Source of the DNA: an uncultured virus (IMG/VR IMGVR_UViG_3300035696_000032)
Lineage: Duplodnaviria > Heunggongvirae > Uroviricota > Caudoviricetes
Direction: 5' to 3' (one strand)
Virus record (IMG/VR): IMGVR_UViG_3300035696_000032
Length of the DNA: 64,000 nt
A program made the translations under genes and the position numbers. Shown piece by piece: positions 421 through 27,873 of this stretch. How positions within the stretch are numbered: position 1 is the first letter of the stretch; each line of letters starts with the position of its first letter. A model generated the notes under the pieces. It searched no databases and was not told where the DNA came from. It saw only the letters and a program-made list of their open reading frames with translations.

Positions 421-687
421 ATGAAGGTCGTCCGAGTCCGCAGGAAGGACGGCTCCTCCTACATGGCGGAAATGGTCGCGGACAATCCCTACATCAAGCC
501 CTCCGCGATGCGACGCCACGAGTGCGCGGAGATGCGCTTGGTCAGGACGATGGAGCACCGTTGGAATCGGATTGCCGTCATGCTGAGCGCGGGCGCAATT
601 CGCCGCGCCGGCCCTGAACTCAAGGCCCTGAGGGGTGACATTCGCAGTCTGAGGGCCATGCACAAGGGGATGTTCCGATGCAGCTAG
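421..687 (+). CDS. Leader-tagged protein 1 (basic, unknown function)
   Basis: N-terminus MKVVRVRRKDGSSYMAEMVADNP. Confidence 0.8.
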   Translation: MKVVRVRRKDGSSYMAEMVADNPYIKPSAMRRHECAEMRLVRTMEHRWNRIAVMLSAGAIRRAGPELKALRGDIRSLRAMHKGMFRCS

Positions 688-878
688 TCCGCGTACGCCG
701 AAAGGATGGAACGAGCTACCTCGCGCAGGTCGTGAGCAGCAATCCGGGATACCGTGTCCAGCGGCTGGAGCACGCCGCGTTCGGGGCCGTCACGCGGAGA
801 GAGTACGCGCTGTGGCAGGTCGGCGCGGTCGGAGCAGTCGGATTGCTCTTCGGATACCTGCTGGGCAAGGGGGCATGA
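678..878 (+). CDS. Leader-tagged protein 2 with C-terminal TM helix
   Basis: MQLVRVRRKDGTSYLAQVVSSNP ... LWQVGAVGAVGLLFGYLLG. Confidence 0.8.
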   Translation: MQLVRVRRKDGTSYLAQVVSSNPGYRVQRLEHAAFGAVTRREYALWQVGAVGAVGLLFGYLLGKGA

Positions 879-879
879 A

Positions 880-1176
880 ATGCAGCTAGTACGAGTGCGC
901 CGCAAAGACGGAACGTCCTACCTCGCCGAGGTCATCGAAGAGAACCCGCGCCTCTCCTACGCGAAGCGTCAGAGGCTGCGGACGAGTTCGTTCGCGTGCC
1001 CGCTCCAGCGCAAGTACCCCATCAACGATGCCGCGCACGTTCGGAACGCGCTCGCCCGCTACCGCCAGAAGCGGACGCTGAAGTGCCCCGGAGGGCTATA
1101 CCGCATCTGTCACGCGGCCCACCGTCACGGAATCAACAGTCCAGTGTGCATCGGGGCGCACCTGCACCGCGAGTAG
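880..1176 (+). CDS. Leader-tagged protein 3, DUF6582-like domain
   Basis: MQLVRVRRKDGTSYLAEVIEENP, then FA-P-xRKYPINDAAHVRNALARY as recalled for DUF6582. Confidence 0.75.
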   Translation: MQLVRVRRKDGTSYLAEVIEENPRLSYAKRQRLRTSSFACPLQRKYPINDAAHVRNALARYRQKRTLKCPGGLYRICHAAHRHGINSPVCIGAHLHRE

Positions 1177-1192
1177 ATGGGAGGGATAGCAG

Positions 1193-2674
1193 ATGGTCCC
1201 TCCGAGAAAGTCCCCGAAACTCCTCGTTAGACCGGTACTCCGGCCGCGGCCCCAGAAGAAGAACCCCTCGGCTGCTGGGAACGTCGCCATCATCGGCGGC
1301 GTCACGGCCGCCGGAATCGGCATCGGCGTCCTCGTGTGGTACCTGACGTCGAAGCCCGGAGGCACGGCGTGCGAATCGCCGGACATGCCGATGACGACGA
1401 GCGGCATCTGCCCGTCGGGCTACGTGGCCGACCCGAGCAGCACCGGCTGCTGTATGCCATCCACGGGATGCACGTCCACGTCGCCCTGCTCTTCTACATG
1501 CCCCAACGGCACCTGTACCTCGGGCACCTGCCAAAACGGCGTCTGCTCCGGCGGTGCGTGCGGTGCCTGCTCGTCCTCCTGCCCTAACGGAACCTGCTCC
1601 CTCGCTGGGCAGACCTGCATCAACGGGAAATGCGGCTGCACGGCGTGCGGGGGTCCGAACTGCTACGACGGGCCCTGCCCCTCGGGTCAGGTCTGTCAGT
1701 CGCCCGGAATGTGCGTGACCAAGGTCAACTGCCCACCGGGCGAGGAGATGATTAACGTCTACGCGGACACCTGCCCGCCGGGCTACCCCTATCGGGACCC
1801 GAACAACCTGACCTGCTGCATGTCGACCGCGCCAAGCTGCGGCGCTTGCTCGCCGTCCTGCACGAAGGGGACGTGCACGTCGGGTACCTGCATCAGCGGA
1901 GGTGCGTGTTGTGGAAGCACCGACGATGTCTACGCCGCGGCCGGAAGCTCCTGTCCTTCGGGCACGACGCGGTACCCGGACGGCCAATACCCGGACTGCT
2001 GCACGGCCCAGTGCCTGTCGCCGAACACGGGCTTCGTCAGCGGGAAGTGCCCGAACTGCACGAAGCAGATTCCCGGCATGAACTGCTGCGAATCCGCCAT
2101 CCCGTCGGGATGCCCCAACACCGAGCCCGAGGCGTACTGCCGCACCGTGGACGACTGCACGACCGGCTACACCTGCACCAACTGCTGCTGCACGAAGGTT
2201 GTCACGGCGGCGACTCCGACCATCACGGTCTCGCCCTCGTCGTTGACCCCTTCGGGCTCAAGCTGTTCGGGCTGCTTCACCGTGAGCGTCACCGGCGCCG
2301 ACTCGGGCGACAACATCGAGGTCTACGACACGGGCGGCACGTACTGGGGCAGCACGAACGCGAACTCCAGCGGCGTGGCGAGCTTCAAGGCGTGCGTGGA
2401 CCAGCAGTACACCGCCGAGAACCTCACCTTCTACGTCAAGGACAACACCTCAGGCACGACCTCGAACCAGGTGACGGTCTCGGTCGCCGGCGGCTGCACG
2501 CTCCCCGACTCGTGCACCCAGTACGGCTGCGGGAAGGACGCCGGGTGCCCAGCGGGCTGCTCCTGCCAGACCGGTAAGGGCGGCTCGGGGACTTGCCACT
2601 CGACCTCCGGCTCGCCGTCTAACGTGAGCCCACCGGCGATGCTCGCCTACGGCTACAACGTGGTGAGGGCATGA
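1193..2674 (+). CDS. Membrane-anchored Cys-rich protein with C-terminal Ig-like domain
   Basis: Basic N-terminus ending KKNP, TM helix, dozens of Cys in CP-G-C repeats, beta-sandwich ending SNQVTVSV. Confidence 0.8.
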   Translation: MVPPRKSPKLLVRPVLRPRPQKKNPSAAGNVAIIGGVTAAGIGIGVLVWYLTSKPGGTACESPDMPMTTSGICPSGYVADPSSTGCCMPSTGCTSTSPCSSTCPNGTCTSGTCQNGVCSGGACGACSSSCPNGTCSLAGQTCINGKCGCTACGGPNCYDGPCPSGQVCQSPGMCVTKVNCPPGEEMINVYADTCPPGYPYRDPNNLTCCMSTAPSCGACSPSCTKGTCTSGTCISGGACCGSTDDVYAAAGSSCPSGTTRYPDGQYPDCCTAQCLSPNTGFVSGKCPNCTKQIPGMNCCESAIPSGCPNTEPEAYCRTVDDCTTGYTCTNCCCTKVVTAATPTITVSPSSLTPSGSSCSGCFTVSVTGADSGDNIEVYDTGGTYWGSTNANSSGVASFKACVDQQYTAENLTFYVKDNTSGTTSNQVTVSVAGGCTLPDSCTQYGCGKDAGCPAGCSCQTGKGGSGTCHSTSGSPSNVSPPAMLAYGYNVVRA

Positions 2675-3063
2675 CGCTGGTCCGTGTGGTCCGCAAGGAC
2701 GGGACGAAGTACCTGGCCGAGGTCATGGAGAACCCCGCGACGACCCACGACCATCCCCACAAGCACTGGATGATTGTGAAGGGCAAGGGGATGATTCAGT
2801 TCGAGCACAAGCACCGTCACGTTCACGCCAAGGGCTCGCTGAAGTTCCACGCCCACAAGCACACGCCCGAGCAGTTGAAGGGAATCTTCCGCGGCTCCAA
2901 GATGAACGAGCGGAGGTACCCCTACAAGGACCTCCGGGAGGATGTCGCCAAGGTCGGTGCGGCCTCCGGCTGCCCGGCGTGCAAAGAGGGGCGTCCGCAT
3001 CGCGCCGGAGAAGACTTTAGGTACCACGCTATGCCGGTCGGCATGGCGTGGGTGGGGTCGTAA
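2671..3063 (+). CDS. Leader-tagged protein 4 (His-rich, CxxC)
   Basis: MTLVRVVRKDGTKYLAEVMENP; ATGA overlap with upstream gene. Confidence 0.8.
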   Translation: MTLVRVVRKDGTKYLAEVMENPATTHDHPHKHWMIVKGKGMIQFEHKHRHVHAKGSLKFHAHKHTPEQLKGIFRGSKMNERRYPYKDLREDVAKVGAASGCPACKEGRPHRAGEDFRYHAMPVGMAWVGS

Positions 3064-3419
3064 TGCCGATTGAAGAGCCCGGATTCGTGCGCCCGATGCC
3101 GGTGAAACTTGACGCCCCGTTCCGCGAGCGGAAGATGGGGAGTCCGTGCACGTTCCCCGGCTGCCACTTCGTCTCCGTCGGCCGCGACATCGAGGAGATG
3201 AAGTACGACATGGAGATGCACTGCCGCAACATCCACTACCGTGACTCCCGCGAGAACTACCGTCTCGCACGGCGCGGTCTCATGGACCACGTCTTCCCCA
3301 CCCCCGGCACGGCCGGCGTCCCTCCGATGCTCACGCGTCGGGTCCCGCAGCCTCCGAGCTACCCGCCACCGCCCGCCGTCGAATACCTCAAGTCCATCGC
3401 ACCCAGGAAGGTAGCGTAG
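3063..3419 (+). CDS. Hypothetical protein with possible C2H2-type Zn site
   Basis: CTFPGC...HCRNIH; TAATG coupling. Confidence 0.65.
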   Translation: MPIEEPGFVRPMPVKLDAPFRERKMGSPCTFPGCHFVSVGRDIEEMKYDMEMHCRNIHYRDSRENYRLARRGLMDHVFPTPGTAGVPPMLTRRVPQPPSYPPPPAVEYLKSIAPRKVA

Positions 3420-3743
3420 GTGCAGCCCTTCACGGAGCGTGCCACGCTCATCACCGACTACGGGAACGTGACACTGGACTTCGCGCTCGACACGCTCGCC
3501 TCGTGGTCGCTGCTCCCACAGGACATCGCCGCCGAACTCAACATCCAGCCGTACCAGGAGGTCCCCATCGAGACGGCGAACGGGCCGACGATGATTCCGA
3601 TGGCGACCGTTATGGTCTCCTTCCACGGCGGTCCGGCGATGCCGGTTCAGTTCCTCCTCGTGCCCTCGACGGTGACGGCCTTGGGCCAGGACGTCATCCG
3701 AAGGTATTCTCTACTGACGCAGAATACCGTCATCGAGCAGTGA
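3420..3743 (+). CDS. Retropepsin-like aspartic protease (DTL in place of DTG)
   Basis: FALDTLASWSLLP, flap ETANG, ALGQDVI; 107 aa single domain. Confidence 0.75.
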   Translation: MQPFTERATLITDYGNVTLDFALDTLASWSLLPQDIAAELNIQPYQEVPIETANGPTMIPMATVMVSFHGGPAMPVQFLLVPSTVTALGQDVIRRYSLLTQNTVIEQ

Positions 3744-3744
3744 C

Positions 3745-3927
3745 ATGAGCTTCACGCTGCACTTCCCCGGTCAGTCGTCCAACGCGCAGCAACGGTTCAA
3801 CATCTGCCTCGACTGCGAGAACGCGATTGTCTACCCCGCCGGGCAGTTGCAGTGCCACATCTGCAAGTGCTGGATGAACCTCAAAACGCGGATGCCGAAC
3901 CAGCACTGCCCCATCGGGAAGTGGTGA
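3745..3927 (+). CDS. Small Cys-rich protein (DUF6171-like)
   Basis: RxxICxxC...CxxCxC-M-LKT...CPxGKW. Confidence 0.7.
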   Translation: MSFTLHFPGQSSNAQQRFNICLDCENAIVYPAGQLQCHICKCWMNLKTRMPNQHCPIGKW

Positions 3928-3936
3928 CGCTCGACT

Positions 3937-3964
3937 TAGGGCTCAAATAGGCTGAGCCGGGTGG
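3937..3964 (+). promoter_or_regulatory. Class L promoter motif
   Basis: AGGGCTCAAATA-N7-CCGGGTGG upstream of ATG 3973. Confidence 0.7.
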
Positions 3965-3972
3965 CTCTAGGG

Positions 3973-5175
3973 ATGCCCCCCGTGAAGGTAGCACCCCTCA
4001 AGGTCCGTGCCATCGCGGCAAAGTCTTCGAAGCCGAACCCCTCGTCTCGGGACCTGGCCATCGTGGTGGGCGGGCTCGGAGCCGTAGCTGTCGGGGCCAC
4101 TGTGCTCTACGTCGTCACGAAGCAGTCCTCGGGCGGCGGGTCGCCAGCCTCGCCCGTCATGCCGGGCTCGACCTCGACGCAGAACGTAGGAGTCAACCCG
4201 TCGGCCACCGTCGCGGGCCAACAGGTGCCCCAGTCGTCCGGCCCCTCGGCATGGGCCTCGACGCCCCCCGGAATCGAGCCCGTCCCAGCCGTCCAGTCCC
4301 CTCCCGCCTACGGCGGAAAGGTTGGCGCCGGCGGCCTCGAAACATGGGGTCCGTACGTGACGAAGCCGCTTCCGCAGATGATGCCGACGATTCCCCAACT
4401 CAAGGAAATCGGAACGGTCGGGCATGGCGTGTGGCCCGCGAGGGCCGCGCCCGTCATCCCAGGGACCAAGATTCCGTTGCAGTACGGTTACTGGGGTCCG
4501 CGCACCGGCTCCGGCATCGTCTCGCCCCGCGCTCCCATGCCGAGCTACGGAGCGGGCGGTGGAGGGACCGGTCAGCGAATCTACCAGTCCGGAAGGACCT
4601 ACGCCGCGCCCGCCGTCCCGTCTCGCATCGGTGACTACGGCGCTCAGTTTGGGAACATCGGAGGAAACAACATGCAGGTAGTCCTGCCCGTGATTGGCGC
4701 GCGCCCGCTCTACGCCCGACCGAAGGTCTACACCATCATGGACAACGTGACCATGACCGGGCCCGGCCCTCGCGTCGCCCAGTACGGCGCGGGCGGTACC
4801 GGCATCGCCATGCCGGTCATCGGCTCGCGTCCCCTCCCCACGCGCCCGAGGGTCTACACCATCATGGACAACGTGACGATGACGGGCCCCGGTCCGCGCG
4901 TGCGCCAGTACGGTGCGGGCGGCGGCGGTCTCGCCTTCTCCATCATGGACAACGTCACGATGACCGGTCCGGGCCCGTTGGTCCGGCAGTACGGCGCGGG
5001 CGGGAACAAAGCCTGCTGCGGCAAGGCTTTCCCGGCGCGCGAGACGGCCTTCCCCGCGATTGCTGCCGCGGGCCGTGGCGGGACCATCCGCAGTGACCGT
5101 TACCCGACGGGTGACAACGGGAACGGCCAGGACTACGGTTTCACCTACTACAAGAACCGAGTGAACATGGTGTGA
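3973..5175 (+). CDS. Membrane-anchored low-complexity protein with internal repeats
   Basis: Basic-NP-TM N-terminus; three IMDNVTMTGPGPxVxQYGAGG repeats. Confidence 0.75.
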   Translation: MPPVKVAPLKVRAIAAKSSKPNPSSRDLAIVVGGLGAVAVGATVLYVVTKQSSGGGSPASPVMPGSTSTQNVGVNPSATVAGQQVPQSSGPSAWASTPPGIEPVPAVQSPPAYGGKVGAGGLETWGPYVTKPLPQMMPTIPQLKEIGTVGHGVWPARAAPVIPGTKIPLQYGYWGPRTGSGIVSPRAPMPSYGAGGGGTGQRIYQSGRTYAAPAVPSRIGDYGAQFGNIGGNNMQVVLPVIGARPLYARPKVYTIMDNVTMTGPGPRVAQYGAGGTGIAMPVIGSRPLPTRPRVYTIMDNVTMTGPGPRVRQYGAGGGGLAFSIMDNVTMTGPGPLVRQYGAGGNKACCGKAFPARETAFPAIAAAGRGGTIRSDRYPTGDNGNGQDYGFTYYKNRVNMV

Positions 5176-5177
5176 AA

Positions 5178-5804
5178 ATGGCGACCAAACCGAAGCTGAA
5201 AATCCGCCTCCAGCCGTCGAAACTAGGCATCAAGCCGAACCCGATGGCCGCGAAGAAGAAGAAGCAGTTGGGCATCGCACTGGGGCTTGGGCTCGCCGCC
5301 GCCGCCGTCATCGGCCTCGCCTACTACCTCACTCGAAAGCAGCCCGCGAGCGGCAACGGGTCCATCGTTACCGGCACGGGCTCGCCTGGCCCGACGCTGA
5401 CCGTCAACGGTGACACGGGCCTGGCCAACGTCATGCCGGGCATCACGGTGCCCATCGCGGTGACGAACGGCAAGCCCGGCGACGCGGTCGTCATCAACTC
5501 GGCGGTCATTTCCGGCACGAACATGGGCTCGACCACGACCATCGCAGCCGGGACGTTCGACCAGAACGGGAACTTCAACGCCAGCACCATCTTCGGCCTG
5601 AACCCGAACGGGCCCGTCCCCAACCCACGTCTCCTGCTGACGTCGTCTCTGCCCGCGAACATGATGACAACGTACAACATCGTGGCCCAGGACACGTCGG
5701 CCGGCGCTTCGAGCAACACCGTCCAGGTGACGGTCTCCCTCGCTTCCTCGAACGGGCCGAAGACGAACGGGCCGAGCAGCAGAAACGGGCCGACATCGGT
5801 CTGA
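5178..5804 (+). CDS. Membrane-anchored Ig-like protein
   Basis: KPNP-basic-TM, then beta-rich domain ending SNTVQVTV. Confidence 0.75.
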   Translation: MATKPKLKIRLQPSKLGIKPNPMAAKKKKQLGIALGLGLAAAAVIGLAYYLTRKQPASGNGSIVTGTGSPGPTLTVNGDTGLANVMPGITVPIAVTNGKPGDAVVINSAVISGTNMGSTTTIAAGTFDQNGNFNASTIFGLNPNGPVPNPRLLLTSSLPANMMTTYNIVAQDTSAGASSNTVQVTVSLASSNGPKTNGPSSRNGPTSV

Positions 5805-5812
5805 GGGCCGCC

Positions 5813-6799
5813 ATGAGTGGTCCGGCCCCCGTTCGAGCCAGGGTAGCGCCCCTTCGGGTTCGACCCATCCCCGTCGTTCGGCATCGAACGAACCCGGCGG
5901 CTCCTGCCCCGGCGCCCCCCAAGAAGACGTCGGTATGGATTCCCCTCGCCATCGGCGGCGCGGTCGCCGCGGCGGCGGGCGTTGGCGTCTACTACCTCAT
6001 CAAGACCTACGGGGGAGGCGGGGGCGGCGGTGGGTGCACGAGCGATTCCCAGTGCCCTTCGGGTGAGCAGTGCTCGGGAGGCACCTGCATAAGTGCCGGC
6101 GTCGCCTGCACGAACAACAGCGAGTGCATGGCGGGAGAGACCTGCCAGAACGGCTACTGCGTCGAGGGGACGGGCTGCGCGGGAACCTGCACCTGCGCGA
6201 ACGGAGCCTCCTGCCAGAGCGACTGTGGCTGCCTCGGCTCGCAGGATTTCTCCTGCAACCAGGGTGCCTGCTACGTCCCGGTGGCAACGAGCCTCACGGC
6301 GCAGGACAGTTCCATCACGATTCCCACCACGGCGAACTACAGCTACACCGAGTGCTACTGGGTCTTCGACTGCACGAGCGCGGGGCCATGCAACTTCAGC
6401 TACCAGGGCGGCAGCGCGGCGACGAACGTCCGCGTGCTTGACCAGTACGGATTCCCGATGGCGGGCGTCCTCCTGAGCTACACGATTAACGGGCAGGCGA
6501 GCCTTTCTGAGACCTCCGGAACGACCAACTCCGACGGCTACGCTCTCGTTCCCGTGCAGATGGGCACCGTCCCGACGTCCTTCCAGAACGGAGGCAACCC
6601 GCCGTACACCAACTGCATCTCGAATCTCTGCGGCGGCAACGGGCAGGGCTCGCAGTGCTCGGAGGTGGACGGTGGTCAGGTAGGGACCATCACCGTGACC
6701 GTATCGGGGACGTCCATTCAGACTCAAATCGTCGTGGCCGCGAGCGTCGATATGTGTTGCGACAACACAGGAGTTGACAACGGGTGCTCATGTACGTGA
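5813..6799 (+). CDS. Membrane-anchored Cys-rich protein with Big-1-like domain
   Basis: RTNP, TM, CTSDSQCPSGEQC repeats, VRVLDQYGFPMAGV...TNSDGYA. Confidence 0.8.
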   Translation: MSGPAPVRARVAPLRVRPIPVVRHRTNPAAPAPAPPKKTSVWIPLAIGGAVAAAAGVGVYYLIKTYGGGGGGGGCTSDSQCPSGEQCSGGTCISAGVACTNNSECMAGETCQNGYCVEGTGCAGTCTCANGASCQSDCGCLGSQDFSCNQGACYVPVATSLTAQDSSITIPTTANYSYTECYWVFDCTSAGPCNFSYQGGSAATNVRVLDQYGFPMAGVLLSYTINGQASLSETSGTTNSDGYALVPVQMGTVPTSFQNGGNPPYTNCISNLCGGNGQGSQCSEVDGGQVGTITVTVSGTSIQTQIVVAASVDMCCDNTGVDNGCSCT

Positions 6800-7782
6800 A
6801 AGTGAGGCCGAAGAAGGTTCCGCGACTGGTGAACAACAAGGTCGTCTACGTTCCGGTCCTCCGCGTCCGTACGAACCCGGCCAAGAAGAAGACGGTGCGT
6901 CAGCGCGTTCGTGCGACGTACCAGACGGTCAAGACGAAGACCACCGCGGCAGCGCAGAAGGCGACCAAGGGCACATGGTTCGAGAAGCACGGCAAGACGG
7001 TCCTCATCGCCGCAGGGGTCGCCGCCGTGGTCGGAGTGGTCGGGGTCGTCCTCTACTACCTCGTCGGCACGGTCGCCGGGGCCCTCAACCCGCCCGCGAA
7101 CAACCCCGCGGCCTGCAACCAACTGACCAGCGAACTCGCATCCCTCTACACGCAAATCAACAACGTCAACCTCGCGGCCTACAAGGTCGGGGGTTCGTAC
7201 ACCTCCCAGCAGCAGGCGGAAATCCAGTCCCTCCAGAGCCAGGCCGCGACGGTGCAGTCGCAGATGGCCGCGGCCTGCGGACCGTCGGCTCCTACCCCGG
7301 GTCAGACCCTCGACAACACCCTGAAGGAGGTCGGCTGGGCGTTCGCTCTCTTCGCGGGTGGCCTAGCGGCCATCGGCGTCGGCGCCTTCGCTTACCGTGC
7401 CTACGTGTGGAGCAAAGTCTACTCGGCCAAGAACGGAAAGGGCAACCCGCCCGAGGACCCGGACGACGTCGAGGTCGGGGACGACTTCAGTCCCGGAGCG
7501 GCCGGGCAGGCCGGGGCTCAGGCCAAGGCCATCACGGACGTGGACAGCGGCGCGACCAGCGCCGACGACGCGAGCACGGCGCTGCGGACGATGGCTTCGG
7601 GCGACCCTGCGATTGCGAGCGCCGACAGCCTCAGCGCGTCGTTCACGGACCTCGCTGCCGCGACGAGCGAGTCCGACCTGGCGGCGACCTACTCGTCGTT
7701 CGCGGACATCTACGCGGCGACTGCGGCGGACGATGCGGAGGCGGCCGAGTCGGCCATCGACGTGATTGCGGAAGTGCACTGA
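6790..7782 (+). CDS. Two-TM protein with coiled coil and acidic tail
   Basis: Basic N-terminus with RTNP; two hydrophobic helices. Confidence 0.75.
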   Translation: MYVKVRPKKVPRLVNNKVVYVPVLRVRTNPAKKKTVRQRVRATYQTVKTKTTAAAQKATKGTWFEKHGKTVLIAAGVAAVVGVVGVVLYYLVGTVAGALNPPANNPAACNQLTSELASLYTQINNVNLAAYKVGGSYTSQQQAEIQSLQSQAATVQSQMAAACGPSAPTPGQTLDNTLKEVGWAFALFAGGLAAIGVGAFAYRAYVWSKVYSAKNGKGNPPEDPDDVEVGDDFSPGAAGQAGAQAKAITDVDSGATSADDASTALRTMASGDPAIASADSLSASFTDLAAATSESDLAATYSSFADIYAATAADDAEAAESAIDVIAEVH

Positions 7783-10464: not shown

Positions 10465-13064
10465 TGGCCCTGTCCGGGTCCGCGGCCCGGACCGTGATGC
10501 CCACGACCTCGGCCGGGCGGGTCGTCGCCGTCGCGCATCAAGTCCGCACCGACCTGGACGGGCTGCCGATGCTCCAGCACCGTCTCCAAATCGTCGCGCG
10601 CGCGCTCGGGGAGTTGGCGTTCATCATCTCGGGCCAGCAAATCCCGATGTCGCTCAAGGTCGAGCCGGAGCACGCGGACCAGCTCGCCTACACGAAGACC
10701 GAGGGGGACCGGTCGCGCGTCTTCATCAACGGCAACGAGGTCATCGCGCGGAACATCAGCGCCGATTCCTCGGGGCACGCCGTTCCCGACACCTCGGGCA
10801 TCTGGAAGATGATGGGCGGGCTCGTCTACCACGAGATGGGCCACATCATGCTCACCCCACGGTGGGTGGACGACTTCCCGGCCGCAGCCCTGGCGCTGCG
10901 CGACAACCTGGTGTCGCTGCGGACCTACCTCGAAAGCATCGCGCCGAGTGACGCGATGGAGTTCGTCTTCCTCTACTACATGATGGCCTCCTACCTGGAC
11001 GCGAGCGTCATCGACGAGGAGACGCGGAAGGCCCTTCAGCTTCAGCCCGTCATGGCGCGCCTGTCCGGACGGATGGAGGAAATCATCCACCCCTGGCTGA
11101 CGGAGCGGCTCGACTACGTGCCCGGTCCGGAGCGACTCGGAGCCGTGGAGGACTTCATCAACACGTTCGGAACCTCGCCGGAGATGGTCAAGAAGGTCGA
11201 GGACCTGGAGAAGCAAGTCGAGAAGATTCAGGCCGAGATGGACCAGAAGCAGGCGCAACTGAACACGTTCGTCGCCGCCGAGAAAGCGAAGTACGACAAG
11301 ATTCAGGCCGACATGGACAAGAAGGGCGTCTCGAAGCGCGTCGCCCGGCGCCACAGCACTCAGGAGGTCACCCTCAAGGCCGACGTGGACCTCGCCGCCC
11401 GACGCATCGTATCGCTCAACAACGAACTGAGCCAGGTCCGTTCCGACGCGGGTCACGGCGGTCAGATGGTCGAGGCGCTGAACAACGCGCGGACGCTGAA
11501 GCAGGTCAAGGGCGAGGAGTACGAGCAGCAGTCCGAGCGGGACATCATGGAGTTGTTCCAGGAGATGATGGTCAACGTCATGCGGTACGACCGGTCGAGG
11601 CCCAGCGAGGGCTGCGTGGTAAGGTACCAGCCCGCCACCACCCTGCCCCACGAGGCGGCGAAGGAGCGCATCGTCGCGCTCTTCAACGAGGTGCTGCCGA
11701 CGATGACGCTGCCCCCGAAGGTCGGCGCGGCGCAGGTCGCCAAGAACTTCGAGACGCTGCTCGAACGCGCCATCGGCGTCGCGGAGAGCCAGAGCCAGAG
11801 CGACACGGCGGGGAACAACTGGGTCATGCTCGTGCAGTCCGAGGCTCCGAACGGTAACTCGGTGATGATGCAGTTCGCCATGCAGCGCAATCTCATCGAG
11901 GACCAGCGGCTCGAAACGCAGCTATCGCAGATGCGCGCCGGGCTGCCGCGGTGGTTCACCTACAACGTGGCGAAGGTCTTCGACCCGAACTTCCGCTACG
12001 GCCTCACCGCGGGGCGCTTCTTCCTCGACCCGAAAGAGTTGAGCACGGACCAGGAGACGACCCGTGCGACGGGCCGGTCGGACGCGACGAAGCCGCCCAT
12101 CGAGGGGATGCTGGAGTGGATGGGCCCCATCGCCGCCGTCTACGTTCCGCTGACGTCCCCTCGCGGCAAGGACGAGCCGAACGACGTCGCCCTCATGGGC
12201 CACATCCAGGCGTTCTCCTACCTCGTGGAGCGCATCTTTTGGCCGACCGAGAGGGACCTGCTCGCGCCGCTCACGTCGGGCATCGAACCCGGCGACATCA
12301 TCAAAATCGACGCGCCCGTGCCGACGGGCGTCCATCACGCGAGCGACAAAGAGGCGGCCACCAAGGGCGCGAAAGAGCGCGCGCAGAAGATTGTGAAGGT
12401 CCAAATGGAGGAAAGCCCGGACCCGTTCGACGCGCAGCGGAAGGTCCTGGCCGGCCTCCTCGATGGCATGGCGCGGTGGGTACGCCGCCGCGCCGCGGTC
12501 CACTCCGTGATGGACGACCTGAACCTGCCACCGGTCGAGTTGCCCGAAACCAAGCCGCTTACCAAACCGCTCAAGCTGCCACAGGCCCCCGCCCCGCCTC
12601 CGCCCGTCGCGGTAGCTCCACCGACCGCGCCCGGCGGGCCCACCCCCTCGGGACCGGTCGCCCCCGTACCCGTGGCCCAGGCCCCGGTGATGCTTCCGGG
12701 CGTGCCGACGCTCGGCCCGAACTCCCCGCCGGCTCGGACCCTGCCGACCAACAAGCAGGCATCCAAGGACCTGGAACTTAAGGTGCTGGCGATTCCCGGG
12801 AATCAGCGTGTCCTCGTCACTGTGAACGCTGGGGCAGATGCCCCGGACAAGGGGACGACGGGGCACGTCAACATCACAGGCGCCGGAATCTCGCGCGGAG
12901 TTGACTTCTCGCTGAAGCCGGTGACCCAGAACACGTTCTACCCCATCACCGTGGACATCTACGACCTGCCGAAGGGCACGAAGTTCGAAGTCGACGTGTG
13001 GGCCACAGCCCCGGGCTACAGCCCCGGGCCCGTCAAGCACATGGAGGTGACGACCTTCTCGTGA
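10464..13064 (+). CDS. CobT-like/VWA-associated zincin metallopeptidase-domain protein
   Basis: HEMGH (HExxH) and distal NLIEDQRLE, separated by a long coiled-coil insert; follows the MoxR ATPase. Confidence 0.75.
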   Translation: MALSGSAARTVMPTTSAGRVVAVAHQVRTDLDGLPMLQHRLQIVARALGELAFIISGQQIPMSLKVEPEHADQLAYTKTEGDRSRVFINGNEVIARNISADSSGHAVPDTSGIWKMMGGLVYHEMGHIMLTPRWVDDFPAAALALRDNLVSLRTYLESIAPSDAMEFVFLYYMMASYLDASVIDEETRKALQLQPVMARLSGRMEEIIHPWLTERLDYVPGPERLGAVEDFINTFGTSPEMVKKVEDLEKQVEKIQAEMDQKQAQLNTFVAAEKAKYDKIQADMDKKGVSKRVARRHSTQEVTLKADVDLAARRIVSLNNELSQVRSDAGHGGQMVEALNNARTLKQVKGEEYEQQSERDIMELFQEMMVNVMRYDRSRPSEGCVVRYQPATTLPHEAAKERIVALFNEVLPTMTLPPKVGAAQVAKNFETLLERAIGVAESQSQSDTAGNNWVMLVQSEAPNGNSVMMQFAMQRNLIEDQRLETQLSQMRAGLPRWFTYNVAKVFDPNFRYGLTAGRFFLDPKELSTDQETTRATGRSDATKPPIEGMLEWMGPIAAVYVPLTSPRGKDEPNDVALMGHIQAFSYLVERIFWPTERDLLAPLTSGIEPGDIIKIDAPVPTGVHHASDKEAATKGAKERAQKIVKVQMEESPDPFDAQRKVLAGLLDGMARWVRRRAAVHSVMDDLNLPPVELPETKPLTKPLKLPQAPAPPPPVAVAPPTAPGGPTPSGPVAPVPVAQAPVMLPGVPTLGPNSPPARTLPTNKQASKDLELKVLAIPGNQRVLVTVNAGADAPDKGTTGHVNITGAGISRGVDFSLKPVTQNTFYPITVDIYDLPKGTKFEVDVWATAPGYSPGPVKHMEVTTFS

Positions 13065-14092: not shown

Positions 14093-14093
14093 C

Positions 14094-16204: not shown

Positions 16205-16233
16205 TGAGGTCTCAAATAGCCTGGGCCGGGTGG
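16205..16233 (+). promoter_or_regulatory. Class L promoter motif
   Basis: AGGTCTCAAATA-N7-CCGGGTGG upstream of ATG 16242. Confidence 0.7.
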
Positions 16234-16241
16234 TCCCAGGG

Positions 16242-16799: not shown

Positions 16800-16801
16800 A
16801 C

Positions 16802-17200: not shown

Positions 17201-17763
17201 TGAAACTCGTCCGCGTCCGCCGCAAGGACGGCACCAAGTACCTGGCGCTCCTCGTCGAGCCCAACCCGCGGCAAACGGTTCGGAAGGCGCTGCCCTATGG
17301 TCTTGTTGTCCGACGCGGCCATGTGGCGATAGGACCGGCGGAGTTTGCCCGTGCCTACTGGAACCTGAGCAACCTCGGCGACCGCCAAGAGATGGCCTCG
17401 ACTCGGGTAGCGTACGCACGGGGGGGTGCATCCTGGCATAGCAAAGAGGTGGCACGCATGGACTTCGAACGCCTCCCGGGATGGTTCAAGAAGCTCGTTC
17501 TCAAGTACGCCTACATCGCCCTCAAGGAATGGAAAGAGAACCCGCGTCACCTGAAGAACCCCATCGTCCTCCGGCGTGAAGCCGCGGGCCACCTCGACCG
17601 AGCGCGGTCGCAAATCGAGATGGCCGCGGAGGCCCTGTCCCCAGCCCGGATGGTTGTGGCGACGGGCGACCCGGAGTCGATGGAAATGGCCGGGCTCCTA
17701 CAGTACATGCGGCGGCTGGAGCGGTCGGTCGACGCCGCGGCCAGGATGCTCCGGCGCCGATGA
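17200..17763 (+). CDS. Leader-tagged protein 6
   Basis: MKLVRVRRKDGTKYLALLVEPNP. Confidence 0.85.
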   Translation: MKLVRVRRKDGTKYLALLVEPNPRQTVRKALPYGLVVRRGHVAIGPAEFARAYWNLSNLGDRQEMASTRVAYARGGASWHSKEVARMDFERLPGWFKKLVLKYAYIALKEWKENPRHLKNPIVLRREAAGHLDRARSQIEMAAEALSPARMVVATGDPESMEMAGLLQYMRRLERSVDAAARMLRRR

Positions 17764-18527
17764 AGCTCGTCCGCATCCGACGAAAGGATGGGTCGAGCTA
17801 CCTCGCACAGGTCGTCGGGAACCCGCTCGACCCCGATACCAAGCGCGCCTACGACGAAGCGCGCCAGGAAATCGGCCACGCTCGTGGTATGCTCATCAAA
17901 ATCGCGCACAACCGCACCATCGGCACGGTGATGGTGGGGCGAGCCCTTCGGGCACAGCTTCTTCTCCTGCGGGCCCAGGAAGCCCTTCGCTTACCCAGCG
18001 AGTACCGGCAGAATCCACGGGCCCCGACCCCGAAAGCGCCTCCCAGGGAGGTCCCCATCGTTCGGTGCGTCACAGAGGTCGACAAGGAAGCCTATCCCGA
18101 TTCGGACGAGGCGCGTGTCGCCGAGATTTGGTTGGCCGGTCAGAAAATCACCGGCGGTCACGGCTTCTGGGGTTCCACCGAGTTGTACCACCACAAGAAC
18201 CCCAAGGACATGGTTGGGGCTTGGACGGCAGGCTGCGGTCGCGCCGGTCTCTGCGACATCGACATCGTCCTCTATGGGGACTGGACCGACGGCCGCCACC
18301 TCGCCGACAGCATCGAGTACGACACCTCGCCGAGCGAGTTCGCCGACCGCGTCGAGAGGGCCGCCAAGGACCGTGGCAGGGCGTACATCGAGAAAGAGAA
18401 CGAGACGTATTTCGACCGCGATGAGGTCATCTACGCGGCCTACGTCTTCCTGCACGTAATCGACGACCTGCCGTTCCCCAGGGACAACGTGCGCCTCGTT
18501 CGGACGGCCGCGACCAGGTCCCCGTGA
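17760..18527 (+). CDS. Leader-tagged protein 7
   Basis: MKLVRIRRKDGSSYLAQVVGNP. Confidence 0.85.
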   Translation: MKLVRIRRKDGSSYLAQVVGNPLDPDTKRAYDEARQEIGHARGMLIKIAHNRTIGTVMVGRALRAQLLLLRAQEALRLPSEYRQNPRAPTPKAPPREVPIVRCVTEVDKEAYPDSDEARVAEIWLAGQKITGGHGFWGSTELYHHKNPKDMVGAWTAGCGRAGLCDIDIVLYGDWTDGRHLADSIEYDTSPSEFADRVERAAKDRGRAYIEKENETYFDRDEVIYAAYVFLHVIDDLPFPRDNVRLVRTAATRSP

Positions 18528-21532: not shown

Positions 21533-21540
21533 GCCCAACC

Positions 21541-22194: not shown

Positions 22195-22288
22195 ACGGGC
22201 CGTGCGGCACGCTCTGGACTAACCCTTTCCCCCCTCTTCTTCCCTCACGCAGCGTTTAAGTAGACCCGATGACGTCCGGCAACTCCGA

Positions 22289-23332
22289 ATGGGGGCCAAA
22301 TCCGTTCGGACCTATACCTCGTCGTCAGACATCTTCGCCACCGGGACGACGCTTTCGATGACAAACGCGGGCACTTTGTCTGCCGCTTGTACGCACCCGT
22401 CTCAGGTGACCGACGTGCACACGTCGGAGCGGATTTGCACGGAGTGCGGTCTCGTCCTGGACTCCTCCCCGGTTGACATGCGCGGCATCAACACGTACGA
22501 CGTGATGGGCGCTCGACACGGGAGCGGTCTCTCGCACGGGCCAGCGACGCCGAGCTTCCGGTCGCTCTCCTCGCATCGCCCCATCGGATGGCAGGGCGTA
22601 CAGGGCTCCGAGAGGGTGAAGCGTCAGTGGCGCCGAGTCGCCGCCGCCGACCGGCACGACCTGGGGCATCGCTCGCGGTTCCTCGCGGGAGCCCACCAGG
22701 TCCGGTCGGTCGCGCTCGAACTCGGCTTACCCCCGCGGTCGGCCGACGAGGCGCTCAAGCTCCTCGTCCTGTGGCGCGAGTGCAAGTCGCGCCGCGTCCT
22801 CCCCAGGGTCGAGGTCACGATGGCGGCGGTCATCATCTACATCTCTCGCCGCGACCACCTTTTCATCAGCACGAGCCGAATCATCCACGCCTTCGGCCTG
22901 CGCTCTCGGTTCACCGCGCTGAAGGCGATGAACATGATGGAGCGAGACATGGGCTTCATGCCCGTCCAGCACTCGGCTCCCGAAATCATCGCTCACCTCG
23001 TCAACGAGTTCTCGCTGCCCACCGCCGTCGCGCGGGAGGCGGCAGGCTACGTCAGCGGTCCGCTTGAAGGTCCGTACATGCCCCAGGGTGTCGCGGGGGG
23101 AGCGGTCTACATGGCCGCGCGACAGCGGAACCTCACGGGCATCGGCGTTAATCAGGAGACCCTGGCACGGGCTTGCGGCGTCACGGCAGTGACCATCCGA
23201 AACCACTACCACAAGATTGCGAAAGCGAACGGCATCGACCCCGACGCGCCCGCCACACTGCACGGTCGATTCTCCGCCCCAGGGCACACTACATTCTGCC
23301 CGCAGTGGGCGGCCCTGGTCGGCGAGATGTGA
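22289..23332 (+). CDS. tfb: Transcription factor B (TFIIB family), divergent; start uncertain
   Basis: Zn ribbon C-x-H...ICTECGLVLD; two cyclin repeats; HTH QETLARACGVTAVTIRNHY; TTTAAGTA box near 22255. Confidence 0.85.
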   Translation: MGAKSVRTYTSSSDIFATGTTLSMTNAGTLSAACTHPSQVTDVHTSERICTECGLVLDSSPVDMRGINTYDVMGARHGSGLSHGPATPSFRSLSSHRPIGWQGVQGSERVKRQWRRVAAADRHDLGHRSRFLAGAHQVRSVALELGLPPRSADEALKLLVLWRECKSRRVLPRVEVTMAAVIIYISRRDHLFISTSRIIHAFGLRSRFTALKAMNMMERDMGFMPVQHSAPEIIAHLVNEFSLPTAVAREAAGYVSGPLEGPYMPQGVAGGAVYMAARQRNLTGIGVNQETLARACGVTAVTIRNHYHKIAKANGIDPDAPATLHGRFSAPGHTTFCPQWAALVGEM

Positions 23333-24395: not shown

Positions 24396-24396
24396 C

Positions 24397-25493: not shown

Positions 25494-25494
25494 C

Positions 25495-25580
25495 CGGAGG
25501 GAGGGGGATTCGAACCCCCAACTTGCTTTCGCAAGACGGCGTTAGCACCGCCGCGCCGTACCGGGTTGGGCCATCCCTCC
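25495..25580 (-). tRNA. trnS: tRNA-Ser(GCT)
   Basis: Cloverleaf, long variable arm, G73; loop GT-GCT-AA (G32). Confidence 0.9.
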
Positions 25581-25584
25581 ATAG

Positions 25585-25668
25585 TGGTGGGCGCCGGATT
25601 CGAACCGACGAAGGACCTACGCCCAGGGGCTCTTGGGGCCCCCGCAGTTGCCGCTGTGCCAGCCCACC
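25585..25668 (-). tRNA. trnL: tRNA-Leu(CAA), C33
   Basis: GGGGC-CCCAAGA-GCCCC; long variable arm. Confidence 0.88.
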
Positions 25669-25677
25669 GATGAGGAG

Positions 25678-25753
25678 CGCGCCCGGCAGGATTTGAACCC
25701 GCATCGTTCCACGTTCGAAGCGTGGCGCCATGTCCAGGTTAGGCGACGGGCGC
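25678..25753 (-). tRNA. trnR: tRNA-Arg(TCG)
   Basis: CCACG-CTTCGAA-CGTGG. Confidence 0.9.
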
Positions 25754-25754
25754 A

Positions 25755-25832
25755 TGGCGGGCTCGGCGGGATTTGAACCCGCGACCTTCAGGTTCGCAAC
25801 CTGACGCGATGTCCAGGCTACGCTACGAGCCC
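25755..25832 (-). tRNA. trnR: tRNA-Arg(GCG), encoded CCA
   Basis: TCAGG-TTGCGAA-CCTGA. Confidence 0.92.
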
Positions 25833-25835
25833 AAG

Positions 25836-25923
25836 TGGTGCTGAGAGGATTTGAACCTCTACGCGGGCTGACCCCACGCCTGCTTCTAAGGCAGGTGCGA
25901 TTACCTGATTCCGCCACAGCACC
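25836..25923 (-). tRNA. trnL: tRNA-Leu(TAG)
   Basis: CCTGC-CTTAGAA-GCAGG; long variable arm. Confidence 0.9.
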
Positions 25924-26033
25924 GAACGCCCGAGGCGCCCGGTTCTTACCGTAGCCGACGCAGGAGGAGCGGGCCCAAACTACTTCGCCGACGGTCCTCG
26001 CGCGTCATCGCGGTGCCCATACACGCTTTACTA

Positions 26034-26303
26034 TTAAAATCCGCCGCTCATCAGTCCGAGCTTCGCGGCGCAGCCACACGCCACTCCGATGTGGCGCTCG
26101 ATGTAGAAGACCCAGCCGCCGTACTCGACCGAATAGGTCTCCGGCTTGAGATGGAAGACCGGTCCAGTAATCGTCATTCCGCAGTTCGCGCAGATGATGA
26201 CGCGCGGTCCGTCTGTGAGAATGACCTCGCCCAGAGCGCCCTTTTCGAAGGGCACTGTCCCCTTCGACCGGGGAATCGTTGGGTCCCAGGAGTCTTCGCC
26301 CAT
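26034..26303 (-). CDS. Small CxxC hypothetical protein within the tRNA cluster
   Basis: CANCG...ACGC. Confidence 0.55.
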   Translation of the reverse strand: MGEDSWDPTIPRSKGTVPFEKGALGEVILTDGPRVIICANCGMTITGPVFHLKPETYSVEYGGWVFYIERHIGVACGCAAKLGLMSGGF

Positions 26304-26314
26304 CCGTCGCCGCA

Positions 26315-26407
26315 TGGGCCTCCCAGGATTTGAACCCGGACCTCATCGTCTCTTGCTGTCTCCGACAGTCCCAAGCGACGGGTGCTACCAAGTTACACCA
26401 AAGGCCC
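26315..26407 (-). tRNA. trnP: tRNA-Pro(TGG) with a 20-nt BHB intron at 37/38
   Basis: CTTG/CAAG central helix with GGA and AGA bulges; intron hairpin CTGTC-GGA-GACAG. Confidence 0.92.
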
Positions 26408-26419
26408 GCGTGGTGCGGA

Positions 26420-26493
26420 TGGGGTCGGAGCGATTCGAACGCCCATTCGCGGTTCTGGAGACCGATGTCCTAGCCGAGTTAGACGACGACCCC
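26420..26493 (-). tRNA. trnW: tRNA-Trp(CCA), intronless
   Basis: TCGGT-CTCCAGA-ACCGC. Confidence 0.9.
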
Positions 26494-26508
26494 GAAGCGG
26501 ATGCTGAG

Positions 26509-26593
26509 CGGGCGCGGCAGGATTCGAACCTGCACCTTCCAGAGGAAGAGCGGTTTTCGGGACCGCCGCATTACCGGATTGTGCCACGCGCCC
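26509..26593 (-). tRNA. trnS: tRNA-Ser(CGA), C33
   Basis: GCGGT-CCCGAAA-ACCGC; long variable arm; G73. Confidence 0.88.
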
Positions 26594-26746
26594 TCGCGGC
26601 CTGAGTCGCTATCGCCATCCCGGCGATGAGCGGCCAGACCGCGACAGGGGTCGCGGTGGCTGAAGGCGCGTGAGCTTCATGGTATGTTTCCCATGCAGGG
26701 ACTAGTATTAAATCCCAGCGGCGCTCATCCACTTCAGAGGTGAAAT

Positions 26747-26819
26747 GGGCCCGTGGCGTCAACGGTAGCGCACCAGGCCCTTAACCTGCGAGGTCGGGGT
26801 TCGAATCCCCGCGGGCCCA
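26747..26819 (+). tRNA. trnK: tRNA-Lys(CTT), C33
   Basis: CCAGG-CCCTTAA-CCTGC. Confidence 0.88.
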
Positions 26820-26847
26820 TCGGAGGCTCGAAGGCTCGCATGACAAT

Positions 26848-26918
26848 CCGGCCGTGGCGGATGGGGACGCGCCCGGCTGTAGACCGGAGCCATGCAGGTT
26901 CGAATCCTGCCGGCCGGA
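26848..26918 (+). tRNA. trnY: tRNA-Tyr(GTA), archaeal/eukaryal type
   Basis: C1-G72, short variable loop, CT-GTA-GA. Confidence 0.88.
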
Positions 26919-26965
26919 CTACAGTCGGCTATCGTGAGCGGCCGAGCGGACCCGGAGATAGGTCC

Positions 26966-27039
26966 GCTCCTCTGGCGTAACCGGTAAGCGCACCTCGTTC
27001 TCGGCGAGGGGTGTGTGGGTTCGAATCCCACGGGGAGCA
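26966..27039 (+). tRNA. trnE: tRNA-Glu(CTC)
   Basis: CCTCG-TTCTCGG-CGAGG. Confidence 0.88.
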
Positions 27040-27045
27040 TCTCAT

Positions 27046-27119
27046 GGTTCCGTGGTCCAACCCGGTTAGGATGCGCGGTTGTCAGCCGCGTGGTCCGGGT
27101 TCAAATCCCGGCGGAACCG
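27046..27119 (+). tRNA. trnD: tRNA-Asp(GTC)
   Basis: CGCGG-TTGTCAG-CCGCG; G73. Confidence 0.9.
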
Positions 27120-27120
27120 C

Positions 27121-27873
27121 TCAGTGCGCGAAGCTCAGCATGTGCTTCCGCAGGTACCGCCGCACCGCGCGGACGAACGTGTCGTCGAACTGACCGCGCT
27201 TGTTGGGGTCCTGGAGGATGTCGCCGTAGAAGTCCGTCCGGTAGCCGGTGTCCTCCATCGCCTGCATGATGAGCGAGTATGGGAACATATCCCGGTCGAT
27301 GGCCTCCTTCAGGTCGCCGGTCCACCGCGTCTCGTCCGTGCCAGGGTCCCAGGAGACGTCGATGAGCTTTCGCCGCAGCAGCTTCAGGTAGTGCTCGATG
27401 GACTCGGAGATGGCAGTGTCCTCGGGCTTTTCACCGCCAGGGCGCGCGTTGAGGACCTTACCGGCGTAGTCGAGCGCGAGCCCCTCGTCGAACGGGAACC
27501 TCTGCCCATCCGTCGCGGTGTAGAGCCAGGGGCCGCCGACCCCCCGACCGGTCGTGCTGATGCTGCCGCCGATGTGGGCGAGGCGGAGCCCCAGCTCGAT
27601 GCGGTCGCGGGTCGTCATCGTGTGCCAGCCCCCGGTCCGCAGTACGAGTTTGTCGGGATAGTAGTGGACCACGTCCGTCTGGTGAAGGATGAGGCTGACG
27701 CTGCCATCCCCTTCCTGGACGAGGTAGGTGTTCCGGTCGACCTTCTTCCGACCCTTGCGACCGTGCAGTAGGAGTGTCTCCACCTGCTGCGGAAGGGGAT
27801 TGGACTTCGGGAGGACCCACGCCAGGTACGCCGAGCCGTCGCGGCGGCGCACGCGGACGAGGTTCTGCCACAC
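27121..27873 (-). CDS. Leader-tagged protein 8
   Basis: MWQNLVRVRRRDGSAYLAWVLPKSNP, then a domain with LRTGGWHTMTTRDRI. Confidence 0.8.
   Translation of the reverse strand: MWQNLVRVRRRDGSAYLAWVLPKSNPLPQQVETLLLHGRKGRKKVDRNTYLVQEGDGSVSLILHQTDVVHYYPDKLVLRTGGWHTMTTRDRIELGLRLAHIGGSISTTGRGVGGPWLYTATDGQRFPFDEGLALDYAGKVLNARPGGEKPEDTAISESIEHYLKLLRRKLIDVSWDPGTDETRWTGDLKEAIDRDMFPYSLIMQAMEDTGYRTDFYGDILQDPNKRGQFDDTFVRAVRRYLRKHMLSFAH

Follow-up and report, generated by a model that had tools for sequence, protein, structure and literature searches.

Eight open reading frames (ORFs) in a 64,000-nucleotide (nt) stretch of DNA from an uncultured virus (IMG/VR IMGVR_UViG_3300035696_000032) open with the same short leader and then run on into different proteins. 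This stretch, at its full length, is the window to which all positions below refer. The leader spans about 22 residues with the consensus M-x-LVRVRRKDG(S/T)xYLAxV..NP and begins proteins of 66 to 255 residues, which we name by the start positions of their ORFs (Table 1). When the eight N termini are aligned, V4, R5, R8, D10, G11, Y14, A16, N22, and P23 are invariant, and the likeness stops directly after the Asn-Pro pair. A six-frame regular-expression scan for VRVRRKDG, allowing up to two substitutions, returned nine matches in the window: the eight ORF starts and one internal chance match at 9463 on the minus strand, which was rejected as a leader. A hidden Markov model (HMM) of 17 leaders, run over all six-frame ORFs, picked out exactly eight window ORFs at 49.5 to 64.1 bits; the next-best ORF scored 5.2 bits and no weaker copies were seen, so the leader copies form a discrete class rather than the tail of a distribution. 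Several tagged start codons overlap or abut the preceding stop codon, and therefore the leader stands at the true N terminus; most also have Shine-Dalgarno-like purine-rich stretches 6 to 12 nt upstream.

What has been kept in these copies is the peptide. Across the 16-codon core, the copies agree at 76% of amino acids; at the nucleotide level the figures are 75% for first, 88% for second, and 46% for third codon positions. Of 342 comparisons between identical residues, just 46% show the same codon. With synonymous sites close to saturation and the peptide retained, we conclude that selection acts on the leader as a peptide. A repeat finder groups the copies as a family of 59 to 74 nt with 64 to 86% identity, which is the shadow of the conserved peptide, and RNAalifold predicted 0 base pairs for 15 leader DNAs, each taken with 12 upstream bases. 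The first-pass annotation of this DNA had described a leader shared by eight ORFs, a likeness ending after Asn-Pro, and selection on the peptide rather than on a DNA repeat, and the scans, the alignment, and the codon comparison bear out all of this, coordinates included.

The sequences that follow the leader are unrelated to one another, again as first described. With the leader removed, 32 compiled sequences (among them two pairs that are the same protein with different called starts) fell into 19 BLAST clusters at E < 1e-3, and the eight window tails fell into eight separate clusters. The tail of ORF 880 passes the gathering cutoff of Pfam PF20223 (DUF6582; 37 bits versus 27.3, residues 35 to 85), and a match to phrog_16160 begins at residue 25, directly after the Asn-Pro. 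A homology search with this protein gave six matches, one of which (P0003, the product of ORF 678) was matched through the leader only. Among the five DUF6582 homologues, the two from the tagged group have the leader and three from elsewhere (P0048 to P0050) lack it; one of these untagged proteins starts with the domain, and two have a different, acidic N terminus. For the protein of ORF 27873, phrog_19389 matches residues 44 to 93, and its sole relative in a collection of 1.84 billion representative proteins is an orthologue in the related locus L071. PDB sequence searches with the ORF 27873 and ORF 17760 proteins found nothing meaningful. Isoelectric points (pI) of 9 or above characterize 26 of the 32 tails, against a median of 7.7 for the window proteome, and three tagged proteins (ORF 678, P0017, and P0020) end in a membrane anchor.

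A profile built from the eight leaders and searched against the same 1.84 billion proteins gave 37 matches at E 1e-3 or better. In 24 of them the leader is N terminal, on proteins of 58 to 255 residues, and the window itself supplies 7 of these, the part of its record just outside it supplies 1, and the other 16 are from elsewhere. Twelve others are internal partial matches in long or repetitive proteins, and the five of these that we inspected were two PAS-domain proteins, one leucine-rich-repeat-like protein, and two simple repeats. The remaining protein, P0033, has the leader near its C terminus, and its gene call looks overextended or truncated. True matches are thus N terminal in 24 of 25 cases, not scattered at random positions; of 36 compiled sequences, 27 have the hairpin described below starting at residue 4, and P0018 bears two tandem copies of the leader. 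The leader is, in short, a portable and strictly N-terminal tag on about 19 unrelated tail families.

The tag is also lineage specific, for the searches placed it in a few related metagenomic records and nowhere else. The 52 metagenome loci yielded true leaders in just four records: the window's own 98,235-bp record (L043, L059, and L073), which includes a ninth copy about 105 to 380 nt upstream of the window start (L059:11307, minus strand); L051, a record of 29.5 kb that has five copies in tandem; L070/L071, of 20.5 kb, with three copies and a further, trimmed one; and L034, of 2.2 kb, with a single copy. When two back-translated DNA patterns were run against IMG/VR, true leaders were present at 0 of 5 and 0 of 16 loci. 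A back-translated scan of GTDB, with one genome per prokaryotic species, yielded them at 0 of 51 loci, all rejected as UvrC, PAS, and chance matches, and so this genome scan identified no host or provirus.

L051 and L071 are syntenic with the window around both tagged clusters (cluster 1, 421 to 3063; cluster 2, within the operon 16242 to 18527) and around ORF 27873. Across six orthologue pairs between the window and these two loci, the leader is 85% identical (104/123) versus 62% (343/551) for the tails. Tagged genes have been gained, lost, or trimmed among the three while the flanking genes stay syntenic: L051 has a tagged gene with no window counterpart, the window has a 493-residue Cys-rich membrane protein inserted, and L071, in which an orthologue of ORF 16802 was sought and not found, has a different tagged gene in its place.

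Table 1. Leader-bearing genes and other features of the window and its related loci (aa, amino acids; empty cells, no entry)
Feature	Position	Strand	Content and relatives
Tagged ORF 1, 88 aa	421..687	+	Leader at 421-492; basic helical tail, pI 11.5; orthologue L051:3731-3907
Tagged ORF 2, 66 aa	678..878	+	Leader and C-terminal transmembrane segment (best 19-residue hydropathy 1.71, at residue 43); orthologues L051:3740 (-) and P0020
Tagged ORF 3, 98 aa	880..1176	+	Leader and DUF6582 domain
Tagged ORF 4, 130 aa	2671..3063	+	Leader and His-rich beta region; family of five members
Tagged ORF 5, 132 aa	16802..17200	+	Leader and basic helical tail with internal NPR
Tagged ORF 6, 187 aa	17200..17763	+	Leader, middle module, internal NPR, C-terminal module
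Tagged ORF 7, 255 aa	17760..18527	+	Leader, helical module, internal NPR, C-terminal domain
Tagged ORF 8, 250 aa, GTG start	27121..27873	-	Leader and TGGW..TT..R domain
First gene of cluster 2 operon, 185 aa	16242..16799	+	Conserved in L071 (92% identity to L071:63-695 over 130 aligned residues); no Pfam, PHROGs, or NCBIfam match
Retropepsin-like protein, 107 aa	3420..3743	+	Just downstream of cluster 1
Promoter-like motif (GGTCTCAAATAGC ... CCGGGTGG)	16206..16241	+	Directly upstream of operon 16242-18527
Promoter-like motif, all window copies	3937, 16206, 21541	+	Three of eight copies
Promoter-like motif, all window copies	59294, 48719, 47866, 46694, 32499	-	Five of eight copies
Promoter-like motif in L051	L051:1645	-
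Promoter-like motif in L071	L071:39, L071:5882	+	Copy at L071:39 upstream of L071:63
Second-motif ORFs	1193-2674, 3961-5175, 5172-5804, 5813-6799, 6784-7782	+	Five consecutive membrane proteins
Second-motif ORF	49043-49477	-
Second-motif ORFs in L051	L051:1-378, 380-1621, 11100-11564
Repeat within membrane protein 3961-5175	4685-5003	+	About three copies
phrog_19005 paralogues	46692-48011, 47870-48685	-	Adjacent
aRF1-type release factor	45295-46182	+
TFIIB/TFB-like protein	22289-23332	+
tRNA gene clusters	25494-27120, 28968-29194, 48800-50479, 52538-52835, 59307-59466		32 tRNA genes
tRNA-Met	50283-50353	-	A1:U72 end, AGCGGG start
tRNA-like gene, 93 nt	26315-26407	-	Four-base anticodon by ARAGORN
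Tandem in-frame repeat in 882-aa ORF	53733-56381	-	About 25 copies of a 54-nt (18-residue) unit
Tandem in-frame repeat in 715-aa ORF	14052-16199	+	GAG-GCN (Glu-Ala/Glu-Gly) units of 12-18 nt
Four small ORFans beside cluster 1 of L051	L051:5019-7257	-	267, 115, 125, and 207 aa

The leader is predicted to be a two-strand beta-hairpin, LVRVRR and xYLAxVV joined by a turn at KDG(S/T). An AlphaFold2 model of the His-rich protein of ORF 2671, computed from an alignment of five family members plus 15 further leaders, places strands at residues 2 to 7, 13 to 18, 23 to 36, and 40 to 53, with the first turn at R/K-K-D-G-S/T. The predicted local distance difference test score (pLDDT) is 90 to 91 over residues 1 to 20, against a mean of 73.2 for the whole model and a predicted template modeling score of 0.36. 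The hairpin with its turn at KDG, which had been guessed from the letters, is thus what the model shows with a pLDDT of about 90. The Asn-Pro of this protein, residues 21 and 22, falls in the turn between the strands at 13 to 18 and 23 to 36.

Comparisons with known proteins returned local likenesses to this hairpin. No family in Pfam, PHROGs, or NCBIfam covers the leader, a leader profile against PDB sequences reached a best E of 0.74, and an ESM Atlas feature search gave no usable match, its structure rows being generic hairpins; comparing the ORF 2671 model with the PDB by VIA-align gave no look-alike (Z at most 2.4). The tag accordingly matches no stand-alone domain in the sequence collections searched. 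The look-alikes are hairpins that share the local pattern (V/I)R(x)RRxDG(S/T)x(Y/F)LA, namely those of PAS proteins (RKDGSxFLAEV; P0019 and P0037), of ribosomal protein uL14 (VRRKDGS), and of UvrC, which by inference would have the same two-strand geometry and tight Asp-Gly turn. Those hairpins are internal to larger folds, whereas the leader is terminal and followed by Asn-Pro and unrelated sequence. A PAS domain is a fold of about 100 residues with a five-stranded sheet; no tagged protein has a PAS family match and only 12 to 17 residues match PAS hairpins, and we rejected the leader as a PAS domain. The likeness is one of a secondary-structure element and not a domain homology.

The Asn-Pro pair closes the leader. 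Both residues are invariant in 17 of 17 aligned leaders, the spacing from the turn Gly to the pair is 9 to 10 residues in 33 of 36 compiled sequences, and an Arg follows directly in 13 of 32. The pair also recurs within the tails, where, homologous proteins being included in the counts, NP occurs 9 times against 2.5 expected (5,000 shuffles, p 0.0006) and NPR 4 times against 0.27 expected (0 of 5,000 shuffles). The homologue of ORF 17200 at L071:692 (P0011) is shorter by exactly the stretch from the NPR of the leader to an internal NPR, the two members of a second and independent pair (L071:1482 and P0035) differ by exactly the corresponding stretch, and the L071:976 orthologue of ORF 17760 has a deletion from mid-leader to the internal NP that leaves only MKLVRIRRK, an NP, and the C-terminal domain. 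Because homologues differ by the stretches between NP(R) motifs, these motifs mark module junctions. Two readings fit their presence there: either the protein is cut at these points, or they are hinges or helix caps at which recombination is tolerated. By analogy with proteins compared below, cleavage at Asn-Pro, by autolysis or by an enzyme, may occur.

A protease-like gene does lie next to cluster 1. The product of ORF 3420 resembles a retropepsin, scoring 24.7 bits against Asp_protease_2 (cutoff 24.3), 27.2 against gag-asp_proteas (cutoff 28.2), and 17.3, below cutoff, against TIGR03698. Its L051 orthologue (L051:1839-2162, minus strand) is 78% identical and occupies the same position after cluster 1. 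Both proteins read L-D-T-L-A, and because D-T-L thereby replaces the catalytic D-T/S-G, ORF 3420 is doubtful as a processing enzyme; judged from its sequence, it may be either an unusual protease or a peptide-binding pseudo-enzyme.

The remainder of the window suggests what kind of element carries the tag, and we read it as a large virus-like element of a nonhalophilic archaeon. It has 65% G+C and a proteome that is not acidic by its median pI. Its 32 tRNA genes lie in five clusters and include a tRNA-Met with an A1:U72 end and an AGCGGG start, which we take to be the archaeal and eukaryotic initiator signature; another tRNA-like gene of 93 nt, called with a four-base anticodon, is possibly intron bearing. 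An aRF1-type release factor (TIGR03676, 246 bits versus a cutoff of 234.7) has archaeal aRF1s as its best solved relatives (E 1e-41). It covers model positions 59 to 315 of 403 and may lack part of the stop-codon-reading N domain, or else its true start may lie further upstream. A TFIIB/TFB-like protein has a zinc ribbon and one cyclin repeat and is divergent, scoring below the NCBIfam cutoff; it had no match among PDB sequences and none in L071, where such a gene was not seen in the gene list of the corresponding stretch. The window further encodes beta-helix proteins, a MoxR-type ATPase, a NADAR domain, and an RNA ligase whose kind is characteristic of large phages and a haloarchaeal tailed virus; most of its ORFs match nothing in Pfam/PHROGs-type scans. 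Two ORFs, of 882 and 715 residues, consist in part of tandem in-frame repeats (Table 1).

Cluster 2 stands behind a promoter-like motif, TAGG(G/T)CT(C/T)AAATA.. followed by CCGGGTGG, which lies 25 to 35 nt before the start codon. This motif resembles an archaeal TATA box with a short leader and may mark one coregulated class of genes. The operon behind it ends with the three tagged genes, in an arrangement that is kept in L071, and other copies precede a 543-residue beta-helix protein, membrane proteins with Ig-like or Cys-rich ectodomains, and ORFans, so that cluster 2 is probably in part coregulated with probable late genes. The motif was not found upstream of cluster 1 in the window or in L051. 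The first-pass claim that most leader copies lie behind this motif, which it called the class L motif, therefore fails: it holds for the three copies at 16802 to 18527 only. Two adjacent paralogues of phrog_19005 (function unknown) each lie behind a copy of the motif; the one match in a phage record falls under features annotated as cysteine protease and amidase.

Five consecutive membrane proteins between the clusters (1193 to 7782), the product of ORF 49043-49477, and their L051 orthologues have a shared N terminus of their own. It is basic, Pro punctuated, and strand-like (P-K/R-V/L-K/R-V..P..K/R-x-N-P), and in most cases a transmembrane helix follows about 10 residues later and then Cys-rich or Ig-like ectodomains. 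Because both motifs end in Asn-Pro, this second motif may belong to the hairpin-leader system. One such protein, of 404 residues (3961 to 5175), contains the repeat (Y/F)(T/S)IMDNVTMTGPGP..(A/R)QYGAGG.

We tentatively favor, with somewhat less than even confidence, a reading of the hairpin as an address tag that docks the tagged proteins on a shared partner, most plausibly the assembling particle or its packaged genome. Recombination would have put the leader before some 19 or more unrelated protein families, whose members are small and for the most part very basic; their genes sit in two fast-changing arrays of an archaeal-type virus-like element. The hairpin would dock each of these proteins onto one shared partner, and the proteins would make up a variable set of internal or cargo proteins, with the Asn-Pro as the hinge between tag and payload and as a candidate cutting point. 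The leader probably binds one shared partner because the hairpin is too small to fold alone and is the most conserved part of these proteins. Loading into the particle or onto the genome ranks first because the setting resembles that of the T4 internal proteins, with its variable arrays of basic proteins, its partial coregulation with probable late genes, and its membrane or fiber-like neighbors. Since no capsid, portal, or terminase gene was recognized, loading and cleavage at Asn-Pro are things that we infer, as are the single shared partner and its membership in the particle.

A bolder version, which we consider a long shot, would have large archaeal viruses of a new lineage use the hairpin and its Asn-Pro as an address tag that processes itself, with Asn-driven autocleavage at the NP(R) junctions. 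Multimodule precursors would dock on the particle, possibly one with an inner membrane, or on the genome, and would split at each Asn-Pro(-Arg), as in mu1 and RsgI (discussed below), with no dedicated protease. A changing set of basic peptides and small domains would thus be freed and travel with the DNA, and the Asn-Pro junctions on the basic N-terminal tails of the neighboring membrane proteins would be parts of the same system.

Several observations weigh against an address tag that loads cargo and is cut. Capsid, portal, terminase, and packaging ATPase went unrecognized in the window and in L051 and L071, even at E 0.5: when 25 larger ORFs were searched against PHROGs with E values as high as 0.5 admitted, no match to a head, portal, or terminase family was better than E 0.046, and the sole match in a Walker-A scan for a packaging ATPase was unconvincing. 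The only capsid-like lead is weak and is a lead, not a finding. It concerns an all-beta protein of 267 residues at L051:5019-5822, 1.1 kb from cluster 1, which has a homologue (P0040) with 81% identity; P0040 is listed on a contig that equals the window's own record in length (98,235 bp), and the window does not encode it. AlphaFold2 modeled the all-beta protein poorly (pLDDT 51.5); Foldseek found nothing at E 1e-3 or better (best E 5.5e-3), with jelly-roll capsid proteins such as P23-77 VP17 among the weak top rows; VIA-align placed it among generic beta-sandwiches (Z at most 5.5); and an Atlas feature search scored unnamed viral clusters at 0.92 and PRD1 P3-like capsid clusters at just 0.79. 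No processing enzyme is evident either, the retropepsin-like neighbor being without the catalytic Gly. As to the junctions, the internal NP and NPR counts draw in part on homologues, the enrichment of NP over all window ORFs is just 1.5-fold (60 versus 39), and Asn-Pro is a common helix-capping pair. Only about four related records provide DNA context, so few genomes were compared. Finally, a hairpin that is basic and has a conserved Tyr between Arg residues might itself bind nucleic acid and never leave the protein.

This last point leads to an explanation that we think unlikely and nonetheless take seriously, in which the hairpin is a retained Arg-rich beta-ribbon that, together with the basic tails, makes the tagged proteins a family of small DNA or RNA binders (chromatin-like, or binding ribosomes or transcripts), with neither sorting nor cleavage involved. 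The hairpin has four to five basic residues, with an invariant Tyr and Ala beside a conserved Arg; most tails are strongly basic, as given above; and the nearest local matches are hairpins of uL14 and UvrC, which handle nucleic acids, as well as of PAS domains. Yet some tails are acidic or neutral (pI 4.7 to 6.8) or membrane anchored, a 16-residue hairpin alone seldom binds specifically, and neither the invariant Asn-Pro nor the cassette-like turnover is explained. Binding of this kind is also compatible with cargo loading through the genome, so the two are not exclusive. Distinctly less probable is a hub or oligomerization tag that works in the infected cell with no link to the particle, the hairpins pairing mutually or with a viral or host hub; possible partners are the neighboring retropepsin-like protein and, through their basic N-terminal tails, the membrane proteins next door. 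An amphipathic two-stranded hairpin does require a partner sheet, the tandem copies of P0018 fit side-by-side pairing, and the membrane proteins between the clusters begin with the second strand-like motif ending in Asn-Pro, but the candidate hub genes are linked to the tag only by position.

The remaining explanations fare poorly. That it is a remnant of paralogy, or a 5' end copied along with its start signal, with no common present function, would suit the clustering of copies in tandem arrays; we judge it very improbable, given that the leader is the best-conserved part of the orthologues, that the peptide has been kept in the face of nearly saturated synonymous sites, and that the tails come from unrelated families, one of which (DUF6582) has other members without a leader. 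A Sec, Tat, or pilin-like signal for secretion or membrane insertion is brought to mind by an N-terminal, basic peptide with an Arg-Arg pair among many membrane-protein genes, and is extremely improbable for a peptide that has no hydrophobic core, whose longest uncharged run is about six residues (YLAxVV, in which x is usually Glu), and whose alignment has a charged residue every two to four positions; there is no motif of the signal-peptidase or prepilin type, and most tails are highly charged helical proteins. The chance that conservation resides in the nucleic acid, as an RNA structure in the 5' coding region, a recombination site, or a DNA repeat, is close to negligible. The 59- to 74-nt repeat family, and NPR junctions that could be sites of recombination microhomology, are what speak for it, and the low identity at third codon positions and the lack of RNAalifold pairs speak against it.

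A constant N-terminal tag on variable viral proteins is already known as a kind from T4. What is new here is the structured hairpin form, the invariant Asn-Pro that recurs at module junctions, and the carrier, an archaeal-type element that defies classification. The letters of the motif were not found in the literature searched, and, as far as titles and the openings of abstracts reveal, papers on large archaeal viruses with aRF1, TFB, or tRNAs and papers on N-terminal cargo packaging signals contain nothing that matches. If the leader is a true address label, ORFans that otherwise defy annotation become one functional class, probably the internal or delivered proteins of a virus group that has neither a cultured member nor recognizable capsid genes. 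As a natural tag it would also be compact (about 22 residues) and structured, and could serve to trace or load proteins in work with archaeal viruses. On the chemical side, the recurring Asn-Pro(-Arg) junction predicts something concrete, either cleavage or a hinge at that very point.

Known cases of Asn-Pro chemistry offer one comparison. Autocleavage at this pair is described for the outer capsid proteins mu1 of reovirus and VP5 of aquareovirus (Asn42-Pro43), where it releases a short N-terminal peptide, and for RsgI, a bacterial anti-sigma factor whose periplasmic domain has its scissile Asn-Pro in a turn that joins two strands (PMC10328401). The leader resembles these proteins in having a conserved Asn-Pro where an N-terminal fragment meets the remainder; no sequence or fold relation to them was detected in the Pfam, PDB-sequence, and VIA-align (Z at most 2.4 for the ORF 2671 model) comparisons. 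Their cleavage needs a specific folded environment, whereas the Asn-Pro of the leader precedes about 19 unrelated tails.

The closest comparison for the arrangement as a whole is with the T4 capsid-targeting sequence (CTS). The T4 prohead protease cuts at Leu/Ile-x-Glu, and in this the two differ: the leader ends in x-Asn-Pro with no conserved L/I-x-E, shows no sequence likeness to the CTS, and, at about 22 residues, is predicted to form a beta-hairpin. The window and related loci gave no match to a T4-type head, scaffold, or prohead protease family, and the host signals are archaeal. The T4 internal proteins are a highly diverse set with only the CTS in common (PMC3012670). The leader is like the CTS in being a short N-terminal peptide that is the only conserved part of diverse proteins of a large virus, and its genes are like those of the T4 internal proteins in turning over between relatives and in encoding small, mostly basic payloads. 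As an analogy, and as that only, the likeness to the T4 CTS is apt.

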